A DNA stretch of 64,000 nucleotides. It comes from an uncultured Candidatus Sumerlaeota bacterium (lineage in GTDB: Bacteria; Sumerlaeota; Sumerlaeia; MWCT01; JAUWMI01). The notes beneath the pieces were generated by a model. It worked only from the letters and a program-made list of their open reading frames with translations, did not search any database and was not told the origin of the DNA. The translations under genes were made by a program, and so were the position numbers. Location of the stretch: NCBI GenBank assembly GCA_964454265.1, contig CAYVXD010000001.1, positions 13,136 through 77,135 on the forward strand. Direction: 5' to 3'. This document shows positions 36,872 through 45,826 of this stretch, piece by piece; the stretch's first letter is position 1; each line of letters starts with the position of its first letter.

Positions 36872-37675
36872 ATGCAGCAAGCAAAATTCTTCGAGAAGGT
36901 ACTTGATCTAATCCGGGCTGGCAAGCGTGGCGCTGTTGTAACAATTATCTCAACTGAAGGTTCAACGCCGCGCAAAGGGGGGGCCAAGATGCTTGTAAGC
37001 GAGGATCTCGAGCTGGTAGGAACCGTAGGTGGTGGGTGCGTCGAAGCAGAAATCATCGCCGCGGCCCGTACGTGTATGAGAAGCCAAAAGCTCGTGGTCA
37101 AGGAGTTCGATCTGACCCGGATTAACCGGGACGAAAATGATATGCTCTGTGGAGGGAGGCTGCGCGTGATGATTGAACCAATAACCCTCGACGATCAGCT
37201 CTTGATCTTTGGAGGCGGCCACGTGGCACTCGCTCTGTATCAGATTTGCCGGCTGCTCGATTTTCGCGTAACAGTCACGGATGACCGGCCGCAATTTGCA
37301 AATAAGAAGCGCTTTCCTGAAGCTGATCAGGTGTTCGCTGCACCCTACGACCAACAGTTTCAGTCGCTCTCCATCACGCCGAATACTTTCATCGTCATTG
37401 TCACCCGAGCCCACGCAGGCGATGAGATTTGTCTCAGACATGCGCTGAAATCACCTGCCTCGTATATTGGCCTCTTGGGAAGCCGCACCAAGTTTGCCCA
37501 GCTGAAAAAACGGCTGATAGATGCAGGTGTCCCACGTGCGCAGCTTAAGCGGATTCATTGCCCGATCGGGCTCGATATTGGAGCCGTTACGCCGGAAGAA
37601 ATTGCAGTAAGCATTGCCGCTGAGATTGTTCAGCATGGGGGGGCAATTCGTGCATCACGCGATAAAAAGAAATAG
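36872..37675 (+). CDS. XdhC/CoxI-family molybdenum-hydroxylase maturation protein
   Basis: Two-domain XdhC architecture (TIISTEGSTPRKGGAKM; LLIFGGGHVALAL Rossmann-like) and a length of about 265 aa. Confidence 0.6.
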   Translation: MQQAKFFEKVLDLIRAGKRGAVVTIISTEGSTPRKGGAKMLVSEDLELVGTVGGGCVEAEIIAAARTCMRSQKLVVKEFDLTRINRDENDMLCGGRLRVMIEPITLDDQLLIFGGGHVALALYQICRLLDFRVTVTDDRPQFANKKRFPEADQVFAAPYDQQFQSLSITPNTFIVIVTRAHAGDEICLRHALKSPASYIGLLGSRTKFAQLKKRLIDAGVPRAQLKRIHCPIGLDIGAVTPEEIAVSIAAEIVQHGGAIRASRDKKK

Positions 37676-37890
37676 GCATTGACTCTGCCAGAAAACTGCG
37701 GTAAAAAGTCTGATTGTATTGCTCTTCCGTAAGGGATTCGTAATGCCGAAAAGGCGTAATTCTCTGCATTTGAAATTGACTGCTTAGCAGCCAGGTGAAA
37801 GAGCAGTTTGCTCGGTTTGCTGCACTGAGCGCATGTGGGAATAATTCTGTTAAACGCACGTTGTTCTTATCCAGCAAAGGGGATGTTTCT

Positions 37891-38604
37891 GTGAAACTGC
37901 ACATTCATAATGTGATAGTAATCTGCGGTCTGCTGTGCGCCCTGAGCATTCCGGTTTGGGCTACTGATTCAGCAACAACCGCAACGTTGGAAAACGACCC
38001 GGAAGCTGTTGTCCTGTTGAAAAAACTGGAAGAGAAAAATGCGGATGTTGACACGATTATTGGACAATTCGACCAGGTAAAGCAATCCACCTTATTTCTC
38101 GAAGAGATTCAGTCACAGGGGAAATTTTATTTTCAGAAACCGGACAAGTTCCGTTGTGATTATTTGCCACCGAATGAGAGTGAGAACTTGATCGTAGGGA
38201 ATACGGCATGGCTCTACGTGCCGGAAATTAAGCAGGTGGAAAAGTACCAATTTTCTTCAGACGTAAATTCCGTGGAGCGATTAAACCGCATGCTGCTTGG
38301 CTTTGGGGTCTCCACGGCTGATGTGCTGGATGTATATCATGTGACTGTTCTCAAGGACGAGAGCTCGAAGGGCGTGACCGCACTCCGATTTACGCCTCTG
38401 AGGAAAGAACCTACTGTTGGATTCAACAAGGTCGTTATCTGGATTAATGAGAGGCATTTGTTGCCGGAAAAAATTGTTATTGATGAAGAGAGTGGTGACC
38501 AGACGATTATAACCATGACACAGATTCGTCTGAATAGAAAAATATCGGATAAGATCTTTCAGCCGGTCTTTCCTCCCGACGTCGAGATCGTCGAAATCTA
38601 TTAG
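37891..38604 (+). CDS. LolA-like outer-membrane lipoprotein carrier-family protein (GTG start)
   Basis: Signal peptide (ICGLLCALSIPVWA), then FxQ...GxFxFxKPxKFRxDY typical of the LolA/LolB fold. Confidence 0.5.
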   Translation: MKLHIHNVIVICGLLCALSIPVWATDSATTATLENDPEAVVLLKKLEEKNADVDTIIGQFDQVKQSTLFLEEIQSQGKFYFQKPDKFRCDYLPPNESENLIVGNTAWLYVPEIKQVEKYQFSSDVNSVERLNRMLLGFGVSTADVLDVYHVTVLKDESSKGVTALRFTPLRKEPTVGFNKVVIWINERHLLPEKIVIDEESGDQTIITMTQIRLNRKISDKIFQPVFPPDVEIVEIY

Positions 38605-38621
38605 GAGCGGATACTGCATTT

Positions 38622-39161
38622 ATGAAATCCTGGCTCTACTGCCTAAGGTGTGTTCTGGCGCTCTCGCTGGTACTGCTCGTCGCATGTACATCGGTTCCCC
38701 TGGAGAGAACGCTTCCTGAGGCCATAACGGCCATTGACGTGCCCATGTTTAAGAACTTAACCTACGAGCCAGGGATTGAGGAACTCATAACCAACTACAC
38801 GATAGAAAGTTTCCTGGCCGATGGTAGGCTGACCGTGGTTCAGAAAGGTGTGGCTGATGCGCGTGTGGAAGGAGCCGTCACCGCGTACACCGTGAGTGTT
38901 TCAAGCTTTGCTAGCGATGACTTTCCCATGATCAGCACTGCCGAGGCAACGGCAAAGGTGACAGTCTGGCAGCCTCAAAAGCCCGAGGCTCCCATCGCGG
39001 AATTCTCTGATATTCACGCATCTATTCCCTATGTTGCCGATCCTCGTTCCACCGTCTACGAGAATGTTGTCGAAGTGAAAAAACGCCTCTTCAGAACCCT
39101 GGCCTCTAATATCGTCACGATGGTGATGACAGGTCCGTATCCGTCTGAGGCGGAAAAGTGA
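38622..39161 (+). CDS. Small lipoprotein, possibly LptE-like
   Basis: Lipobox LLVAC and a size of about 180 aa. It sits adjacent to the LolA-like gene. The LptE assignment is tentative. Confidence 0.3.
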   Translation: MKSWLYCLRCVLALSLVLLVACTSVPLERTLPEAITAIDVPMFKNLTYEPGIEELITNYTIESFLADGRLTVVQKGVADARVEGAVTAYTVSVSSFASDDFPMISTAEATAKVTVWQPQKPEAPIAEFSDIHASIPYVADPRSTVYENVVEVKKRLFRTLASNIVTMVMTGPYPSEAEK

Positions 39162-39235
39162 TATAATCACCCCGGCTTGCAGGTTTGCTGCAAAGGCCAT
39201 TACGCCACAGAATTGCGCGGCACGGTAGATATCCC

Positions 39236-41245
39236 ATGCTTTTCGAACGGATTAAAAGCAACCGGCTTATCATCCTCTCGGTCGTTGTCTTCATTGTGAC
39301 CGGTGTGCTGATCTTGCTTCAGCTTGATCGGCAGTACTACCAGGTCAAGAAAAAACAAATTATTGTGGATAATTGGGAAAAATTCTTCCCCGTAGATCGC
39401 GAGGATCTGACCAGGGAATCCCGAGCAGTGATCTTGGCGACCGACCCGCGGTCTCAGGATCTGGCACGGCGGCCTCTCCGCCAGACATTCGAGGATATTG
39501 CTCATGGGCCGACCAGCGCCTACCGGATGGCCTTGCTCGACAAGAACAGTGAAGTTTTGCTAGAAGTAAAACAGGATAAGATTCGGCGCTATAATAACGC
39601 CAGAAATTCCCTGTTCCTGCGAGAGTTCTCAGGCGAAACCAGCCTTTTGATCTCCGATATTACCAGACACGTTATCGGCAAAGTCGTTGTGTCTTATACC
39701 ACACCGCTTGACAATCAGGAAATTATTGATCTCACCGCACGGTATAAATTCTATGCTCTCCTGATCATGGTGGGACTCATTATCATCTACGCCGCACTTC
39801 TAAAATTTTTGCTACTGCCAGTCAAACGGGTTATGGGACGCCTGGATTACGCCCTCAAGGCCTCGCCAGAAATTATTAAGCGCCCACGCTCGCGGCTCGA
39901 ACGCGTGTATAACAACCTGGCTCGAGATGCCCTGCTCACCGCTGCCAATCAACATATCAAGGGTTTCATTTCAACCAGCGCCACGCTGGATACCGCTGTC
40001 ATCCTGGCTCAGCTCCCAGCATTCATTCTCCGCCTATTCCGCTACGCAGGCATCTGGGTGTTTGAATTCAAGCGAGATCCCGAGAATCGCTATATCTTGG
40101 TCCATTCGTTTTCGGAAGGCGGGAAGGTTGCCCATAGTCTCACCCCGCGCGTGAAGGAAATTCTTGAGGAAACGCTCCGCACTACTTCCTCGGTTATGCT
40201 TGCGAGCAAGCTTGAGAAGGTAGTCATTCAGTGCCAGGATGGCGGCAAGCCATATTGCCTTTTTATTGATCTGATCAATGAGCGTGAGGAGTACGCTCTT
40301 GTGGACATCATAGCCATTCTGGCTGACGGTGTACCCGGTCGCGTGCCGGATAAGTGGCGGCTGGAGACGTTGGGCTTGCTTTGCGAGCAGGTCAAAACCG
40401 GCATCAAGACAATCGAGATGCAGCGCCAGATGATATTTCGCGAAAAGAGCGAGGCTAATATCAATCTGTCCCGTAATCTGGGCCACGATCTGACGAACAT
40501 TATTGCCACGAGCAAACTGGATTTGTTAACCGTGCGGGACTTTCTATCGCAGTCAGACCTCCCACCAGCGACTCAGGCCCAGGGCGTTCGGATCTTTCAG
40601 GAAGCACTACAGGACCTGCTCAATAATACTAAATTTCTTCAGGAACTTGTTGACATCTACCGCTCATTCAGTTTTATCAAGCGTCCTCGCTTTGAAGAGG
40701 TTAACCTGCACGATTTGCTTGACGACATCATTCGCGTGTTTCAACTCTCGATCTCGAGAAACATCACAGTTGAAATACGACCCCATCCCCAGCTGCCCCA
40801 CTGCCGCATCGAGCAACGTCTTGTGAAGCTCGCCATTTTCAACCTCCTGAGCAATGCCGTGGATGCAATAAAGCGGAAAGTTTCGACAGAGAGCCTGAGC
40901 GGCAACATTGTGATAACGACGAACTATCTTGAGGAATCTGATGAGCTTTCTATTTCCATCAGAGATACTGGAGATGGTATCCGCGACGACAAGGGCGAGC
41001 TCGCCTCACCCATCGAAATTGACAAAATTTTCTACATGGGCTATTCGACCAAGCGGAATGAAGAAGGAGAGGGCCTTGGGCTGAATTGGGTCTGGACGAT
41101 TATCAGCGAATTCCACAAAGGTCGCGTTATTGCGCGGAATTGCCCCGACGGAGGTGCGGAATTCACTATCTACCTTCGGCGCCAGATAGATCTGCAAGAA
41201 GAGCAAAAGCCAACCCAGGACGTATCAGGAAAGTCTAAGAAATAG
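39236..41245 (+). CDS. Sensor histidine kinase (two TM segments, HisKA-HATPase core)
   Basis: H-box LGHDLTNII, an N-box region and the G1/G2 motifs (DTGDGI..., GEGLGLNW). Confidence 0.8.
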   Translation: MLFERIKSNRLIILSVVVFIVTGVLILLQLDRQYYQVKKKQIIVDNWEKFFPVDREDLTRESRAVILATDPRSQDLARRPLRQTFEDIAHGPTSAYRMALLDKNSEVLLEVKQDKIRRYNNARNSLFLREFSGETSLLISDITRHVIGKVVVSYTTPLDNQEIIDLTARYKFYALLIMVGLIIIYAALLKFLLLPVKRVMGRLDYALKASPEIIKRPRSRLERVYNNLARDALLTAANQHIKGFISTSATLDTAVILAQLPAFILRLFRYAGIWVFEFKRDPENRYILVHSFSEGGKVAHSLTPRVKEILEETLRTTSSVMLASKLEKVVIQCQDGGKPYCLFIDLINEREEYALVDIIAILADGVPGRVPDKWRLETLGLLCEQVKTGIKTIEMQRQMIFREKSEANINLSRNLGHDLTNIIATSKLDLLTVRDFLSQSDLPPATQAQGVRIFQEALQDLLNNTKFLQELVDIYRSFSFIKRPRFEEVNLHDLLDDIIRVFQLSISRNITVEIRPHPQLPHCRIEQRLVKLAIFNLLSNAVDAIKRKVSTESLSGNIVITTNYLEESDELSISIRDTGDGIRDDKGELASPIEIDKIFYMGYSTKRNEEGEGLGLNWVWTIISEFHKGRVIARNCPDGGAEFTIYLRRQIDLQEEQKPTQDVSGKSKK

Positions 41246-41396
41246 GAGAGTCTTCGGGAGAGACAAATGGGGCGTTACGAAGTAGGGCTGATTGAAAAGC
41301 GTACAATGGCAGCGAGCGAAGCGGCCACCCGTAGCATGGAGAGTAACATGCCTTGCGCAGCATGGAATTGTTTAAAAGAAATGGAGAGGTATTTGC

Positions 41397-42683
41397 ATGG
41401 CGTCAAAAATTAAAGTCCTAATTGTTGATGACAATAAGAGCTATCGTGATGCGTTCAGGCGAAATCTCTCAATGCATAACTATGAGATTTGTGAGGCGGA
41501 AAATGCAGACGAGGCACTTCAGGTATTAAAAGAAGAGAGTCCTGACGTCATGGTTACTGATTTGCGCATGCGTACTCGTACGGAAGGGCTAGACCTGATC
41601 AAGCAGGCGCGCGATCTGTCGCCGATGCTTCCCGTGGTCATGATTTCCGCAGTCGGCACATTCGAAGAAGGGGCAATTGCCACAAAGCTGGGTGCCGCTG
41701 ACGTAATCAGCAAAAGCCGGATCGAAGAGGAAATCGTACAACTTTATCGCAGTATTGACACCGCACACGAAGAGTACAAGGCGAACATGGGATTGCTGAA
41801 AACCATTGAGGAAGCGCGCAAGGTGGCTGGTGAATCTGACGCAGCAGATTTCTCTTCAAAGCTGAAGGCTATCTTACAGCAGGACGATGTTGATCCGTAC
41901 GTAAAGGGTGAGGCGTACGACGCGCTTCTGAGTTTGGATGCATTTGGCATTCGTGAGGCGTCACACGACCAGCTGGCGAGGATGGTGGCGGAGGCCGCCG
42001 ACGAGTCAGCCTTGTTCAAAGCGATTGACGAGGAGCTGCAAACTCTGGTGCCGGTAATCGAGAGTTTTGAGCCGGATTCGCGGGAAGCGCTTCGCACTGC
42101 AGAATACTTCTATCGTAAGCACCAAAAAGGAATTACTGAGGTGGACTTCTCACGCAACATCGGCTTCTCCTATTGCTTCGCGGTGGAAAACGAAGCCAAA
42201 GCCCGTCTGCGCAAAAAGCTTGCCCGCTTTCTCGGCTCGCGCAACACCTACGACACGGTTAACCAGATGCTCGAACCCAGGACGCGACATCTCAATCTCT
42301 TCTTTCATCAGTATTTGTTACGTCTCCAACAGGGCCGCGAATTTGATTTTACAATTGATAATGTTAAGCAGACGTTTCATCGCATCTTGGAACATGAAAA
42401 CCGCTACAAACCCGACGGATTGAAGGCCCTGGGTATCATCATCATCTGCTTTGGCCGGGATTACGAGTTCAAGACGCCCCATGGCAAGGTCGCTGTTAGC
42501 AATCCGCTCAATCTCAAAGGCCTGAAGGACGAAGATGAAGTTCTCACGTTTGCCCAGCTTCTGGTCAGTCTGCAACACTCACGCAATCCTTATATTCATC
42601 CTGAAATCAGTGAAATGCAGAAGGTATCAAAGTTGCGCGATACCACCATGAAATGTCTTCAATATATTTGCCAGCTTGTATGA
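41397..42683 (+). CDS. Response regulator with an uncharacterised roughly 300-aa C-terminal output domain
   Basis: REC domain (VLIVDDN ... VMVTDLRMRT ... VVMISA with an implied K). No HTH, AAA+, GGDEF or HD-GYP motif is recognisable in the C-terminal part. The sequence ends with RNPYIH (Rx4H). Confidence 0.7.
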   Translation: MASKIKVLIVDDNKSYRDAFRRNLSMHNYEICEAENADEALQVLKEESPDVMVTDLRMRTRTEGLDLIKQARDLSPMLPVVMISAVGTFEEGAIATKLGAADVISKSRIEEEIVQLYRSIDTAHEEYKANMGLLKTIEEARKVAGESDAADFSSKLKAILQQDDVDPYVKGEAYDALLSLDAFGIREASHDQLARMVAEAADESALFKAIDEELQTLVPVIESFEPDSREALRTAEYFYRKHQKGITEVDFSRNIGFSYCFAVENEAKARLRKKLARFLGSRNTYDTVNQMLEPRTRHLNLFFHQYLLRLQQGREFDFTIDNVKQTFHRILEHENRYKPDGLKALGIIIICFGRDYEFKTPHGKVAVSNPLNLKGLKDEDEVLTFAQLLVSLQHSRNPYIHPEISEMQKVSKLRDTTMKCLQYICQLV

Positions 42684-42749
42684 TTACGAAGAGTTGGTAA
42701 GGCAGGAGAATAGAATCTACGCGTAATAATGGCGCGAATAGCTGCTCGC

Positions 42750-42797
42750 AGCGGTTTTCCATATCTGTACTAGGTCGGAAGCCGCTTTGTTTTTTTG
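42750..42797 (+). terminator. Intrinsic terminator after the response-regulator gene
   Basis: AGCGG..TTCC / GGAAGCCGCT stem followed by TTGTTTTTTT. Confidence 0.45.
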
Positions 42798-42809
42798 TAC
42801 AGTGCAAAC

Positions 42810-44153
42810 TTACAGTAGCTGTCTTACCCGTCGGTAGAGCTCGCGCGCCCGCGTTTGTGTAGTTGCTTCAACAAAAAGCCGCAATACCGGTTCGGTGCCT
42901 GACGGCCGCAGATGGACCCAGGAATCCGAGAATTCCAACTTTAGTCCGTCTAATCGGCTGCGCTTTCGCGGCGATGGAAACTCTCGCTCTACTGCAGCAA
43001 ACAATTCCTCACTATCTCTGTGATCCAAACGCAGCTTCCGTTTAATCAATGCATAGTCTGGAATGCTGGCATTTAGTGTGGCAATGGTCTGATTCGTCTC
43101 AGCCATAGCCTGCAGGATGAACGCCATGCCCGTGGTGGCGTCACGGCCGGGATGAATAGCGGGAATGATTACGCCCCCATTGCCTTCTCCACCGATTTTG
43201 CCATGTACGGCGCGCAATTTCTGCACCACATGAGCTTCGCCAATTGGGGTGCGAAAGACGCGAACATTATACCGGCGCGCCAGGTCGTCAATTGCACGGG
43301 TGGTTGACAGGTTAACCACAACCGGGCTCCGCGTCTTGCTGAGAAAATGAGCAACCACGAGGGCAAGCGTCCGTTCATCCCCGAGCGGACGGCCTTTGGC
43401 GTCAACAATTGCCAGCCGATCAGCGTCAGGATCCAGTGCAAACCCAACATCCGCGCGCCAACGCACAGTAGCCCGGCTCAGCTGACCCAGGTTTTGCGCC
43501 AGTGGCTCGGGCTCGTGAGGGAATACTGCGTCGGTATCTGTGTTAATTGCCTTCACGCGGCAGCCCAGTTTGCGAAGCAGCAGTGGCGCAATTACCGAAC
43601 CAGCGGCATTACAGCAATCCACCACCACACGAAAACGGCAGCGGCGTATGCGCTGCACAGCCACAGCTCTGAGCACTTTCTTAACGTGCCGTTCAACCGC
43701 ATTCGCATAGAGCCTTACTTCGCCCAGATCATGCAGCTTCGCACGAATGAACCGCTGCTGTGTATAATAGCGTAGCAGGCGACGATGCTGCCTGCGGTAG
43801 AGAAATTCTCCACTAGCATTAAAAAACTTCAGCGCGTTCCACTCCGCTGGATTGTGACTCGCCGTGATAGCAATGCCTCCGTCGCTACGGAGCTCGCGCA
43901 CCATCATGCCAATAGTGGGCGTCGGGCATATGCCCAGATCCATTATCGTATAGCCGCATGACATAAGTCCGCCAAAGACCAGCTGCCGAAGCATCTCGCG
44001 CGACAACCGACTATCTGTTCCTACTACAATCTTATTTCCGCGCAGCATAGTGGCATATGCCAGAACGTAGCGCAGGAAATCCTCGGGCACCAGTGACTCT
44101 CCGATAATCCCCCGGATTCCCGCAACACTGATCATGGGCTGTGACGTGGCCAT
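42810..44153 (-). CDS. Phosphoglucosamine mutase / phosphomannomutase family (alpha-D-phosphohexomutase)
   Basis: Active-site Ser loop ITASHNP and the sugar-binding GEGNGG loop. Confidence 0.8.
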   Translation of the reverse strand: MATSQPMISVAGIRGIIGESLVPEDFLRYVLAYATMLRGNKIVVGTDSRLSREMLRQLVFGGLMSCGYTIMDLGICPTPTIGMMVRELRSDGGIAITASHNPAEWNALKFFNASGEFLYRRQHRRLLRYYTQQRFIRAKLHDLGEVRLYANAVERHVKKVLRAVAVQRIRRCRFRVVVDCCNAAGSVIAPLLLRKLGCRVKAINTDTDAVFPHEPEPLAQNLGQLSRATVRWRADVGFALDPDADRLAIVDAKGRPLGDERTLALVVAHFLSKTRSPVVVNLSTTRAIDDLARRYNVRVFRTPIGEAHVVQKLRAVHGKIGGEGNGGVIIPAIHPGRDATTGMAFILQAMAETNQTIATLNASIPDYALIKRKLRLDHRDSEELFAAVEREFPSPRKRSRLDGLKLEFSDSWVHLRPSGTEPVLRLFVEATTQTRARELYRRVRQLL

Positions 44154-44270
44154 GGAACTGCCTCCACTGTTGGGGCCGACGCACAAAAACAGTCGGCTGT
44201 GCTTTCCTCTTTTCTTTGTGCTGAATGCTCTTGAACTGACAGATGTACTTAATTAAAAACTGCAGAAAGG

Positions 44271-44286
44271 AATTTGCAAGCAAATT
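44271..44286. promoter_or_regulatory. Palindrome AATTTGCAAGCAAATT upstream of the phosphohexomutase gene (candidate operator)
   Basis: It shares the ATTTGCAAG half-site with the palindrome upstream of the ROK-nagB operon. Confidence 0.3.
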
Positions 44287-44371
44287 TGTTCACGCTTTTG
44301 CTCAAAGGCTGGGGCCGGCTGGCCTGATGAAAACCCCGGCTTGGTGATGGTAGAGCGAAGCCCAGTAGGCG

Positions 44372-45826
44372 CTAAACTGACTTGCGCATACTGGCAGGGA
44401 GAATTTTAATCTGTTCACGATACTTGGCTACAGTTCGGCGGGCAATCTGAATACCCCGCTCCCGCAGTAACTCAGCCAAACGTTGGTCGCTATATGGTTT
44501 TGCTGAATTCTCATCGTTAATTAATTGGCTGAGCTGCTCTTTGACACTCATGGATGATGCAGTTTCTCCGTCCTGACGTTTCAGGCCGCTGGAGAAGAAA
44601 AACTTGAGCTCGAACGTGCCTCGTGGCGTCTCTACGTACTTGTTCGTCGTCACTCGTGCTACAGTGGATTCATGCATGCCCACTGCCTCAGCGATTTCGC
44701 GCAAGGTGAGTGGCTTAAGGTGTTCAATTCCCTTTTTCAGAAAATCCTTTTGGTGGGTCATGATCGCTTCTGTGACCTTCAAGATCGTGTTCTTGCGTCT
44801 TTCGATATTTCGGATCAGCCAGACCGCAGCTTTATACTTCTCCTGGGCATATTCCTTCTCTTCTGGTGCAAAGCGGTTGTTTCCAGAGAGCAACTTGCGG
44901 TAGAATGTACTAACCTTAAGGTGGGTTGATGACCCTTCGTTCAAATAGTAGACGTAGCGGTCGTCTATTTTTTTAACAACCACATCGGGGGTAATGTAGT
45001 TAGGTTGCTCCTTCGTCTTGACTTGTCCGGGTTTTGGCTCAAGGCCAGCAATCGTGTGAAACGCCTGGACAATTCTATCCTCTGTTGTGCCAATGGCTCG
45101 TGCAATCTCCGGGAATTTCTTACGCTGGAGAAGGGCAAAATGTTCGTCAAGAAGCTGGTAGGGGAGCGGATCCTTGATACCCTTGTCAATCAGCTGGAGC
45201 CGCAGACATTCTTGCAAATCCCGTGCTCCAACGCCCACAGGATCAAACGTCTGGATCGTGCTCAGAATCTCCTCAACCTTGCTCGGTTCCACGCCGAGCT
45301 CGCGCGCCACTGCGTCTGTTGTTATTTCCAGATATCCATTGTCATTAGTATTGCCGATCAGATACGCCCCAATCTCAAAGTCTTTTCCCTCCAGGCCTGA
45401 GGTCCGCAGCTGCCACATCAAATACTCGTAAAGGCTGGTACGCGACGGGGTAAATTCGGTAAAATCCTTCTGCTCTTCGTCCTCAGCCGGAAAATAGACC
45501 TTGTTTTCTGCGTGCTCGTAGTATTCGTCCCAATTCACATCTACCGCTTGAAATGGTTCGTTCTGTTCCGTGCTGGCCGACTCAGATTGCTTCGTATCTA
45601 ACTGCTCTTGAGAGGTCGCAAGGGGGGGATTCTGGTCAGACGATTGCTCGGTTGAATCCTCTTCGTCTGTGGCTAGCTCCAGGAAGGGATTCTCCATCAT
45701 TTCCTGCCGCGCCAGCTGCTCGAGCTGCATAGAAGTCAGCTGCAGCAGCTGAATTGACTGCTGCATCAGTGGAGTCATCACCAGCTTTTGCGTTTGCTTG
45801 AGAACTTGATTCAGCGACAGCGGCAT
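44372..45826 (-). CDS. rpoN: RNA polymerase sigma-54 factor
   Basis: N-terminal Gln/Leu-rich activator-interacting region, and the C-terminal RpoN box ARRTVAKYRE with an HTH. Confidence 0.9.
   Translation of the reverse strand: MPLSLNQVLKQTQKLVMTPLMQQSIQLLQLTSMQLEQLARQEMMENPFLELATDEEDSTEQSSDQNPPLATSQEQLDTKQSESASTEQNEPFQAVDVNWDEYYEHAENKVYFPAEDEEQKDFTEFTPSRTSLYEYLMWQLRTSGLEGKDFEIGAYLIGNTNDNGYLEITTDAVARELGVEPSKVEEILSTIQTFDPVGVGARDLQECLRLQLIDKGIKDPLPYQLLDEHFALLQRKKFPEIARAIGTTEDRIVQAFHTIAGLEPKPGQVKTKEQPNYITPDVVVKKIDDRYVYYLNEGSSTHLKVSTFYRKLLSGNNRFAPEEKEYAQEKYKAAVWLIRNIERRKNTILKVTEAIMTHQKDFLKKGIEHLKPLTLREIAEAVGMHESTVARVTTNKYVETPRGTFELKFFFSSGLKRQDGETASSMSVKEQLSQLINDENSAKPYSDQRLAELLRERGIQIARRTVAKYREQIKILPASMRKSV

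Follow-up and report, generated by a model that had tools for sequence, protein, structure and literature searches.

A two-component response regulator of Sumerlaeota with a candidate HEPN-type output domain

Response regulators of two-component systems act mostly on transcription, second messengers or chemotaxis. A receiver followed by an output that does not bind DNA, often dimerised by phosphorylation, is found in CheB, in the GGDEF proteins PleD and WspR, in the HD-GYP protein RpfG and in ANTAR regulators (AmiR), the last of which likewise act on RNA; to our knowledge, none of these has a HEPN-type output. Most of what is known of bacterial HEPN RNases concerns toxins, effectors of abortive infection and accessory proteins of CRISPR systems, and Ire1, RNase L and Las1 are HEPN nucleases in routine eukaryotic physiology. 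The HEPN fold is a four-helix up-down core of two alpha-hairpins with a frequent insert between helices 2 and 3; the motif arginine precedes a polar residue (N, D or H), and an acidic residue of helix 2 typically lies within E-x3-[KR] (PMC3710099). Our literature search found no paper joining a receiver domain and HEPN as a regulator output, and where the 2013 HEPN survey mentions receivers, it is solely as alternative partners to a transmembrane domain.

In working logic, Ire1 and RNase L seem closest to the system described here (cf. PMC3710099). In both, an N-terminal dimerisation module driven by phosphorylation or ligand is followed by an RNase of HEPN type that works only when dimerised, and both serve in housekeeping or stress signalling rather than as toxins. 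They differ in being eukaryotic and in having a regulatory module of protein-kinase fold instead of a receiver; their KEN domain is, moreover, circularly permuted (PMC3710099), and neither protein gave a sequence match or a top structural match to our domain. RnlA, the toxin of RNase LS, carries N-terminal TBP-like domains, is paired with a protein antitoxin (RnlB or Dmd), serves in phage defence and requires canonical dimerisation through its Rx4-6H motif for activity (PMC8266594). Other HEPN RNases are controlled by cyclic oligoadenylate bound to a CARF domain (Csm6/Csx1) or by AMPylation by MNT (HEPN-MNT).

The locus studied here lies in a 64,000-nt stretch of DNA from an uncultured Candidatus Sumerlaeota bacterium (the window), and all its features are on the + strand. 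A sequence-only reading of the window had proposed a two-component pair whose regulator ends in a HEPN-like motif, and open reading frames and translation place both genes where that reading put them. The sensor histidine kinase (39236..41245) has 669 aa from its ATG, with an alternative TTG start at 39185. The two transmembrane segments and large loop ascribed to it are borne out by hydropathy, which gives TM1 at residues ~10-30 (nt 39263-39325), TM2 at ~170-195 (nt 39743-39820) and a loop of ~140 aa between them; the H-box histidine is His417 (nt 40484-40486), and the HATPase_c domain spans residues 528-649 (nt 40817-41182; Pfam E 1.2e-15). Among 66 related loci, an orthologous kinase lies directly 5' of the regulator in 33, the regulator being an orphan in the remainder.

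The response regulator (41397..42683) has 428 aa, arranged as a receiver domain, a helical linker and a HEPN-like domain; its full-length AlphaFold model has a pLDDT of 87.9, and nearly all of its 321 homologues are 420-430 aa long with a receiver domain. The receiver (residues 7-116, 41415..41744) matches Pfam Response_reg with E 4.9e-22 (78.6 bits against a cut-off of 30.2), and its phosphorylation set of D11, D12, D55 (nt 41559-41561), S84 and K106 is complete and invariant in alignment A1. With an intact receiver and a histidine kinase adjoining on the same strand, the protein is a two-component response regulator. As the sequence-only reading had it, a canonical receiver is joined to no recognisable output: Pfam and NCBIfam scans cover the receiver only, residues 117-428 match no known output-domain model, and no match recurred when 16 isolated domains were scanned permissively against Pfam, on which grounds the known output domains were rejected. 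A PDB sequence search with residues 122-428, as a single sequence or a profile, gave no match either, and the sole PDB hit of the family profile, between the linker and SpoIIIAH (E 0.019), was not significant. The region had been taken for a single output domain of ~300 aa; a distinct C-terminal region is indeed present, but it consists of a poorly conserved helical linker of ~80 aa (residues 117-199, 41745..41993) and a conserved domain of 229 aa (residues 200-428, 41994..42680). In the model, receiver helix 5 runs on into the linker as a single long helix (106-142), and column hydrophobicity along it follows a 3-4 repeat.

The conserved domain has the layout of a HEPN domain. Its core helices (226-243, 249-280, 379-395 and 406-426) form a four-helix up-down core of two alpha-hairpins, and between helices 2 and 3 the models and the conservation delimit an insert of ~100 aa (residues 281-378, 42237..42530). 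The insert is modelled as four helices and a beta-hairpin (355-368), with H304-Q305, Y337-K-P-D-G341 and F352-x-R354 invariant. The R-x4-H motif, R396-N-P-Y-I-H401, is encoded at 42582..42599, where translation gives RNPYIH as the earlier reading had indicated, within QHSRNPYIHPEI. It begins at the end of helix 379-395, in the loop ahead of helix 406-426, a placement in the model that agrees with the HEPN description (PMC3710099), and the polar residue after the motif arginine is the invariant N397. Core helix 2 (249-280) supplies the acidic residue, E264, within E264-N-E-A-K268 (42186..42200), an E-x3-K in which E264 and K268 are invariant; this would be the second active-site element of a HEPN domain. 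The same helix holds a PD-(D/E)xK-like arrangement, D250 followed by E266-A-K268, and a nuclease of that kind was rejected, since both models show the segment as a single long helix and not as beta-strands.

The pattern R-x4-6-H occurs five times in the regulator, so that the bare pattern is uninformative and it is conservation that counts. In a 50-sequence alignment at ~50% identity, R396, N397, P398, Y399, I400, H401, P402 and E403 are all invariant, and RNP[YF][IV]H is kept in 143 of 143 family sequences that reach the C-terminus; the ten sequences missed by the search pattern comprise nine truncated fragments and P0141, which retains RNPYIH. Beyond the regulator family, an exhaustive profile search of 1.84 billion proteins detected sequence relatives in one group alone, HEAT-repeat proteins 770-930 aa long (P0154-P0245; E 1e-9 to 1e-3), which have the whole ~225-aa domain in common with the regulator and carry HEAT repeats in place of the receiver at the N-terminus. 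All 51 of these relatives have R233, D340, G341, R354, Q393, R396, N397 and H401, and 50 of them have D250. Position 264 is D or E throughout; position 268 is R in 23, K in one and E in 23, and those with E nearly all have K or R at 269. The relatives also have invariant lysines of their own, at 261 and 325, positions occupied by F and Q in the regulator. Conservation of the motif among homologues had been named beforehand as the test of the reading, and the arginine and histidine are invariant both in the family and in these 51 remote homologues. Three of 56 HEAT-repeat proteins show sub-threshold Pfam matches to HEPN_RiboL-PSP (best E 0.0087). None carries an informative name, the one locus inspected has a housekeeping-like context, and a profile of the HEAT family retrieved only HEAT or alphaRep proteins from the PDB.

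We put at roughly one half the probability that this is a working two-component system whose regulator output is a previously undescribed HEPN family, a phosphorylation-gated and probably dimerisation-activated housekeeping RNase. In such a system, the membrane kinase would sense an extracytoplasmic signal and phosphorylate D55 of the receiver, which may alter the dimer state of the regulator, the change being relayed via the long helix that extends receiver helix 5. Two HEPN-like domains would then meet as a canonical HEPN dimer, in which the paired R396-N-x3-H401 motifs together with E264 and K268 would make up a metal-independent endoribonuclease site for the cutting of cellular RNA. The direction of control may instead be of another kind, phosphorylation relieving or imposing an inhibition. 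The output that we infer would be post-transcriptional and housekeeping, neither toxin nor phage defence.

Some HEPN domains are non-catalytic. Here too the fold may serve without RNA cutting: under the control of phosphorylation, the domain would bind RNA, a nucleotide or a partner protein in the manner of an adaptor or an anti-terminator, and the conserved R, N and H would hold the ligand. We regard this as rather unlikely, given that two architectures share R, N, H and the acidic residue of helix 2 without exception and that families which gave up nuclease function usually no longer carry the Rx4-6H motif (PMC3710099). The best structural matches of the domain, none of them significant, are also active RNases, RnlA and LsoA.

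A second alternative is that the domain is a novel all-helical HEPN lookalike in which the R-x4-H is kept for structural or unrelated catalytic reasons, the kind of output then being unknown. Foldseek searches of PDB and BFVD gave nothing at E <=0.001 (best probability 0.66, E 0.87), and sequence profiles gave no significant link from the regulator domain to a known HEPN family in Pfam, NCBIfam or PDB. The same searches returned no significant match to a known non-nuclease fold, the other outcome named beforehand as speaking against the reading, and we consider a lookalike improbable. RnlA and LsoA (PDB 6y2r, 7aex, 5hy3) share 8-17% identity with the domain and show no sequence-level match to it. 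Unlike RnlA, the regulator has a receiver at its N-terminus, a histidine kinase as partner, an insert of 100 aa and a housekeeping context; with neither a TBP-like part, a sequence match nor an adjoining small antitoxin-like gene, it is not a member of RNase LS, and the resemblance is in fold only. Nor is the locus of the Csm6/Csx1 or HEPN-MNT kind, since CARF, MNT and CRISPR genes are absent from it, and neither the window nor the related loci contain MNT, CARF or CRISPR-Cas.

At least 80 species-level genomes, most of them Sumerlaeota, carry the regulator family. The loci behind this survey were retrieved by the peptide patterns RNPYIHPE and YKPDGLKA, and because of this retrieval method motif conservation within them was not counted as evidence. 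Their neighbours are housekeeping genes, among them LolA, LptE, RNase J, RNase PH, RuvX and glycosyltransferases. In clades without an adjacent kinase, the neighbours include RNase J (5 loci), RNase PH (3) and RuvX/YqgF (3), but, counted by clade, these RNase-gene neighbours reduce to about three independent arrangements only. The HEPN-like domain (residues 200-428) has no match in PADLOC or PHROGs, nor does the longer segment 122-428, and PADLOC on the remote homologues gave one match, in the HEAT repeats of P0159 and outside the common domain. With no effector-domain match and no defence island, the regulator does not belong to a known anti-phage system in PADLOC, and the empty searches led us to reject a defence or phage origin of the domain. 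A toxin or an effector of abortive infection, in which the receiver would restrain a HEPN RNase until phage attack triggers it, is very unlikely: the bacterial HEPN RNases described so far are mostly toxins or defence effectors (PMC3710099) and PADLOC models do match the regulator weakly, but only in receiver residues 4-64, and against it stand the breadth and conserved neighbours of the family, the lack of mobile-element or defence genes near its loci, and the absence of any MNT, antitoxin-like or CRISPR partner from the window.

For the preferred reading, a signalling RNase of housekeeping function, the genes upstream hint at what the kinase may sense. The sequence-only reading had noted LolA-like and LptE-like genes just upstream, and Pfam identifies both. 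The LolA-like gene for an outer-membrane lipoprotein carrier (37795..38604) opens a LolA-LptE-kinase-regulator cassette; its product matches Pfam LolA (E 2.4e-20) and NCBIfam lolA (E 2.1e-23, under the equivalog cut-off), its real start probably lies 3' of the GTG listed for it, and its position is kept in L001, L003, L004-L025 and other loci. The LptE-like lipoprotein gene (38622..39161) encodes the N-terminus MKSWLYCLRCVLALSLVLLVAC with a lipobox, L-V-A-C, at residues 19-22; the product matches Pfam LptE (E 6.4e-6, 27.3 bits against a cut-off of 23), and its position, too, is conserved in related loci. An envelope-related signal had been suggested, and an envelope link is indeed suggested by the synteny of the LolA-LptE-kinase-regulator cassette, which is found in ~25 of 66 related loci and does not extend throughout the family. 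Because of this cassette, it is conceivable, if tentative, that an envelope signal, perhaps the status of outer-membrane lipoprotein or LPS assembly, drives phosphorylation-dependent HEPN dimerisation and thereby the cutting of specific cellular RNA as a housekeeping function.

Between kinase and regulator lies a spacer of 151 nt (41246..41396), with a ribosome-binding site GGAGAGG (41384-41390) 7 nt 5' of the regulator ORF. The spacer is conserved among the close relatives L004 and L005 only, and not in L006. Rfam gave zero matches in it or elsewhere in 37000-45000, and with conservation limited to close relatives an RNA element or attenuator was rejected, both for the spacer and for that interval. 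Promoter and terminator counts over 37000-45000 are at or under the shuffled expectation.

Our data point to a new candidate HEPN family that current domain libraries lack; it contains an insert of 100 aa and has a sister group fused to HEAT repeats. The organisms are uncultured, and its biology is therefore to be studied in a heterologous host. If the reading is true, a receiver-HEPN regulator retained throughout a phylum and away from defence islands would mean that two-component signalling can be wired straight to RNA cleavage. It would constitute a bacterial counterpart of Ire1 and RNase L and a new class of response-regulator output, and bacterial HEPN nucleases would also serve routine physiology, in a role other than defence.

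The kinase and regulator genes lie on the same strand, and translation bears out the sequence-only reading of a two-component pair. The 669-aa product of the first ORF (39236-41245; a TTG at 39185 could serve as start instead) is a histidine kinase, with a HATPase_c domain (residues 528-649; Pfam, E 1.2e-15), an H-box (RNLGH417DLTN) and, as that reading had described, two strongly hydrophobic segments (about residues 10-30 and 170-195) on either side of a ~140-aa loop. The second ORF (41397-42683; ribosome-binding site GGAGAGG, 7 nt before the ATG) encodes a 428-aa response regulator: residues 7-116 match Response_reg (Pfam, 78.6 bits; cut-off 30.2) and the phosphorylation set is complete (D11, D12, D55, S84 and K106), all five residues being invariant among homologues. 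The spacer between the genes (41246-41396) is 151 nt long here and in the related loci L004 and L005, and its sequence is kept only among close relatives; in loci L001 and L003 the two genes abut. It contains a 47-codon ORF (start 41268) that overlaps the beginning of the regulator gene in a different frame, and a weak hairpin resembling a terminator (41347-41364); an Rfam search of it gave no match.

No recognisable output domain follows the receiver, as had been noted: residues 117-428 of the regulator had no match in Pfam, NCBIfam, PADLOC or PHROGs, nor by sequence in the PDB. An AlphaFold model of the full-length protein (pLDDT 87.9) and a model of residues 200-428 alone (pLDDT 92.5, pTM 0.89) agree on the layout, so the supposed output domain of roughly 300 aa resolves into a linker of ~80 aa and a domain of 229 aa. 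In the models, helix 5 of the receiver runs on as a single helix of 37 residues (106-142) in which hydrophobic positions recur in a 3-4 pattern, the linker consists of poorly conserved helices to about residue 199, and the conserved domain (200-428) has core helices at 226-243, 249-280, 379-395 and 406-426, with an insert (281-378) of four helices and a beta-hairpin (355-368). Near the conserved L156 and the E172-A-Y-D motif, a profile of the linker (window 41760-41990, residues about 144-198) matched a helical stretch of SpoIIIAH (PDB 3uz0, 3tuf) without reaching significance (E 0.019); the resemblance is probably compositional.

Nucleotides 42582-42599 encode RNPYIH, the Rx4H motif from which an output of the HEPN RNase type had been proposed, and the sequence-only observation thus holds on every point. 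The bare R-x4-6-H motif is by itself no more than chance, since it occurs five times in this regulator; the evidence lies in conservation. Residues 125-428, used as the query of a word-indexed search, returned 321 homologues, nearly all of 420-430 aa with a receiver domain, the named ones belonging to Candidatus Sumerlaeota (BRC1). Across 50 family members at about 50% identity the segment L392-Q-H-x-R-N-P-Y-I-H-P-E-I404 is invariant, and RNP[YF][IV]H is kept in all 143 family sequences that extend to the C-terminus; ten others missed the search pattern, namely nine truncated fragments and P0141, which still has RNPYIH. The 80 genome loci retrieved by the patterns RNPYIHPE and YKPDGLKA were not counted as evidence for motif conservation.

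When 1.84 billion representatives were searched exhaustively with a profile, only 128 matched; those outside the regulator family are 770-930 aa long and carry HEAT repeats at the N-terminus (P0154-P0245), and their C-terminal ~225 aa align with residues 205-428 of the regulator over the full length. Among 51 such remote homologues, R233, D340, G341, R354, Q393, R396, N397 and H401 never vary, D250 is kept in 50 and position 264 is always acidic; the motif reads LQD-x-RN-x-x-AH. Two subtypes occur, one ending in AHRQT at the extreme C-terminus and the other continuing from AHEGFHPDA into a ~60-aa tail. At the one HEAT-family locus examined (L084, 6001-8721) the setting is housekeeping-like, with Sua5, an RRM_1 protein and FKBP nearby.

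Structural comparison places RnlA (6y2r, 8.8; 7aex, 8.4) and LsoA (5hy3, 8.4) closest to the conserved domain, followed by AF0298 HEPN (8.3), Roquin (7.8), ST0689 HEPN (7.7), TT1696 (7.5), Sacsin HEPN (7.3), the HEPN toxins SO_3166 (7.0) and 7ae2 (6.8), and Csm6 and AbiA (6.2). HEPN domains of unrelated families make up about 12 of the first 19 structural matches. The domain also has all five features that define HEPN in the 2013 superfamily survey (PMC3710099): these include the four-helix up-down core; R396-H401 begins exactly at the end of helix 379-395; the polar residue (N, D or H) after the motif R is the invariant N397; the helix 2 acidic residue, typically within E-x3-[KR], lies in the invariant E264-N-E-A-K268 of helix 249-280; and the insert sits between core helices 2 and 3, where HEPN inserts are frequent. 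The modelled domain probably represents a HEPN family that is new and divergent and belongs to the type with the catalytic motif.

A non-catalytic binding module of HEPN type is the foremost alternative to a phosphorylation-gated RNase, if a rather doubtful one, followed by a look-alike fold, which is improbable. HEPN RNases need no metal, and the H and R of the motif are required for their activity (PMC3710099). On the weaker side for the family assignment, Foldseek searches of the PDB and BFVD found no significant match, profile searches gave no link between the regulator's domain and any Pfam HEPN family, and only 3 of 56 remote homologues had sub-threshold matches to HEPN_RiboL-PSP.

Receiver phosphorylation commonly drives dimerisation. 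Computation gives an intact kinase-receiver pair, an HEPN-type domain with complete, invariant active-site-type residues and a long helical connector between receiver and domain; RnlA, the best structural match, requires for its activity a canonical HEPN dimer that joins the two motifs (PMC8266594). We infer, with a probability of about 0.5, that phosphorylation of D55 would dimerise the regulator, that the dimer would assemble a composite RNase site and that this site would cleave cellular RNA.

At least 80 species-representative genomes, nearly all labelled Sumerlaeota, carry relatives of the regulator. The window comes from a close relative, for the nearest genome locus, L004 (JAUWMI010000020.1, Candidatus Sumerlaeota bacterium CSMAG_2394), shares 92-97% of its protein residues and has the genes in identical order. 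Assemblies that bear the label Omnitrophota or just 'bacterium' hold the most divergent orthologues (38-43% identity; L067-L083); these have a conserved context of their own, in which tandem GFO/IDH/MocA oxidoreductases precede the regulator and a GT4 glycosyltransferase follows it. Crude ORF calls allowed the regulator gene to be positioned in 66 loci; an orthologous kinase lies directly upstream in 33, the rest being without an adjacent kinase, and the cassette of LolA-like gene, LptE-like gene, kinase and regulator (37795-42683, + strand in the window) recurs in about 25. The suggested envelope link is real for one large clade and does not hold for the whole family. In the listed LolA ORF (37795-38604) ~40 codons separate the initial GTG from the hydrophobic signal sequence VIVICGLLCALSIPVWA, so translation probably begins downstream of that GTG; a clear lipobox (LLVAC, Cys22) is present in the LptE-like protein (38622-39161). 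Convergent with and immediately downstream of the regulator is a phosphoglucomutase/phosphomannomutase-family gene (42810-44186, - strand) with all four PGM_PMM domains, and next to it a 484-aa ORF (44372-45826, - strand) that we took, from its sequence, to be a putative RpoN (sigma-54); L004 has the same order.

A Pfam run on 87 immediate neighbours, kinase excluded, found as recurring families GFO/IDH/MocA oxidoreductases (10 loci), GT4 glycosyltransferases (8), RNase J (5; directly downstream on the same strand in L041, L045, L048, L049 and L051), RuvX/YqgF (3; directly downstream in L010, L012 and L053), RNase PH (3; directly upstream in L056, L059 and L060), GHL10 (3) and HU (3). The RNA-processing genes beside the regulator in different clades form only about three independent arrangements and are no more than suggestive. 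A TRAM-domain RNA uracil-5-methyltransferase adjoins the orthologue in L077 (7655-9166), and five loci have a DEAD/MrfA-type helicase gene at the second or third place downstream. In one clade an ATP:guanido phosphotransferase gene (McsB-like, PF00217; 4374-5441 in L059, also in L056 and L060) immediately precedes RNase PH and the orphan regulator, a hint of another phosphorylation setting when a histidine kinase is not adjacent. That the regulator is a defence toxin is very improbable, no mobile-element, toxin-antitoxin or defence genes being found among its neighbours in the surveyed loci. The neighbour survey therefore marks the regulator as a lineage-wide housekeeping gene.

Although structurally closest to RnlA and LsoA, the regulator stands outside their family, lacking TBP-like domains, an antitoxin and sequence similarity. 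In its proposed logic it is closest to Ire1 and RNase L, in which a dimerisation-controlled module is N-terminal to an HEPN RNase, and in CARF-HEPN and HEPN-MNT systems, too, a sensor controls an HEPN RNase, as proposed here. We found no paper on a receiver-HEPN regulator, and the domain is covered by none of the domain libraries; REC-HEPN fusions in other HEPN families may exist in databases or unpublished. To our knowledge, none of the enzymatic or RNA-directed response-regulator outputs CheB, GGDEF, HD-GYP and ANTAR is HEPN. The predicted domain would join them as a new HEPN family serving as a response-regulator output.
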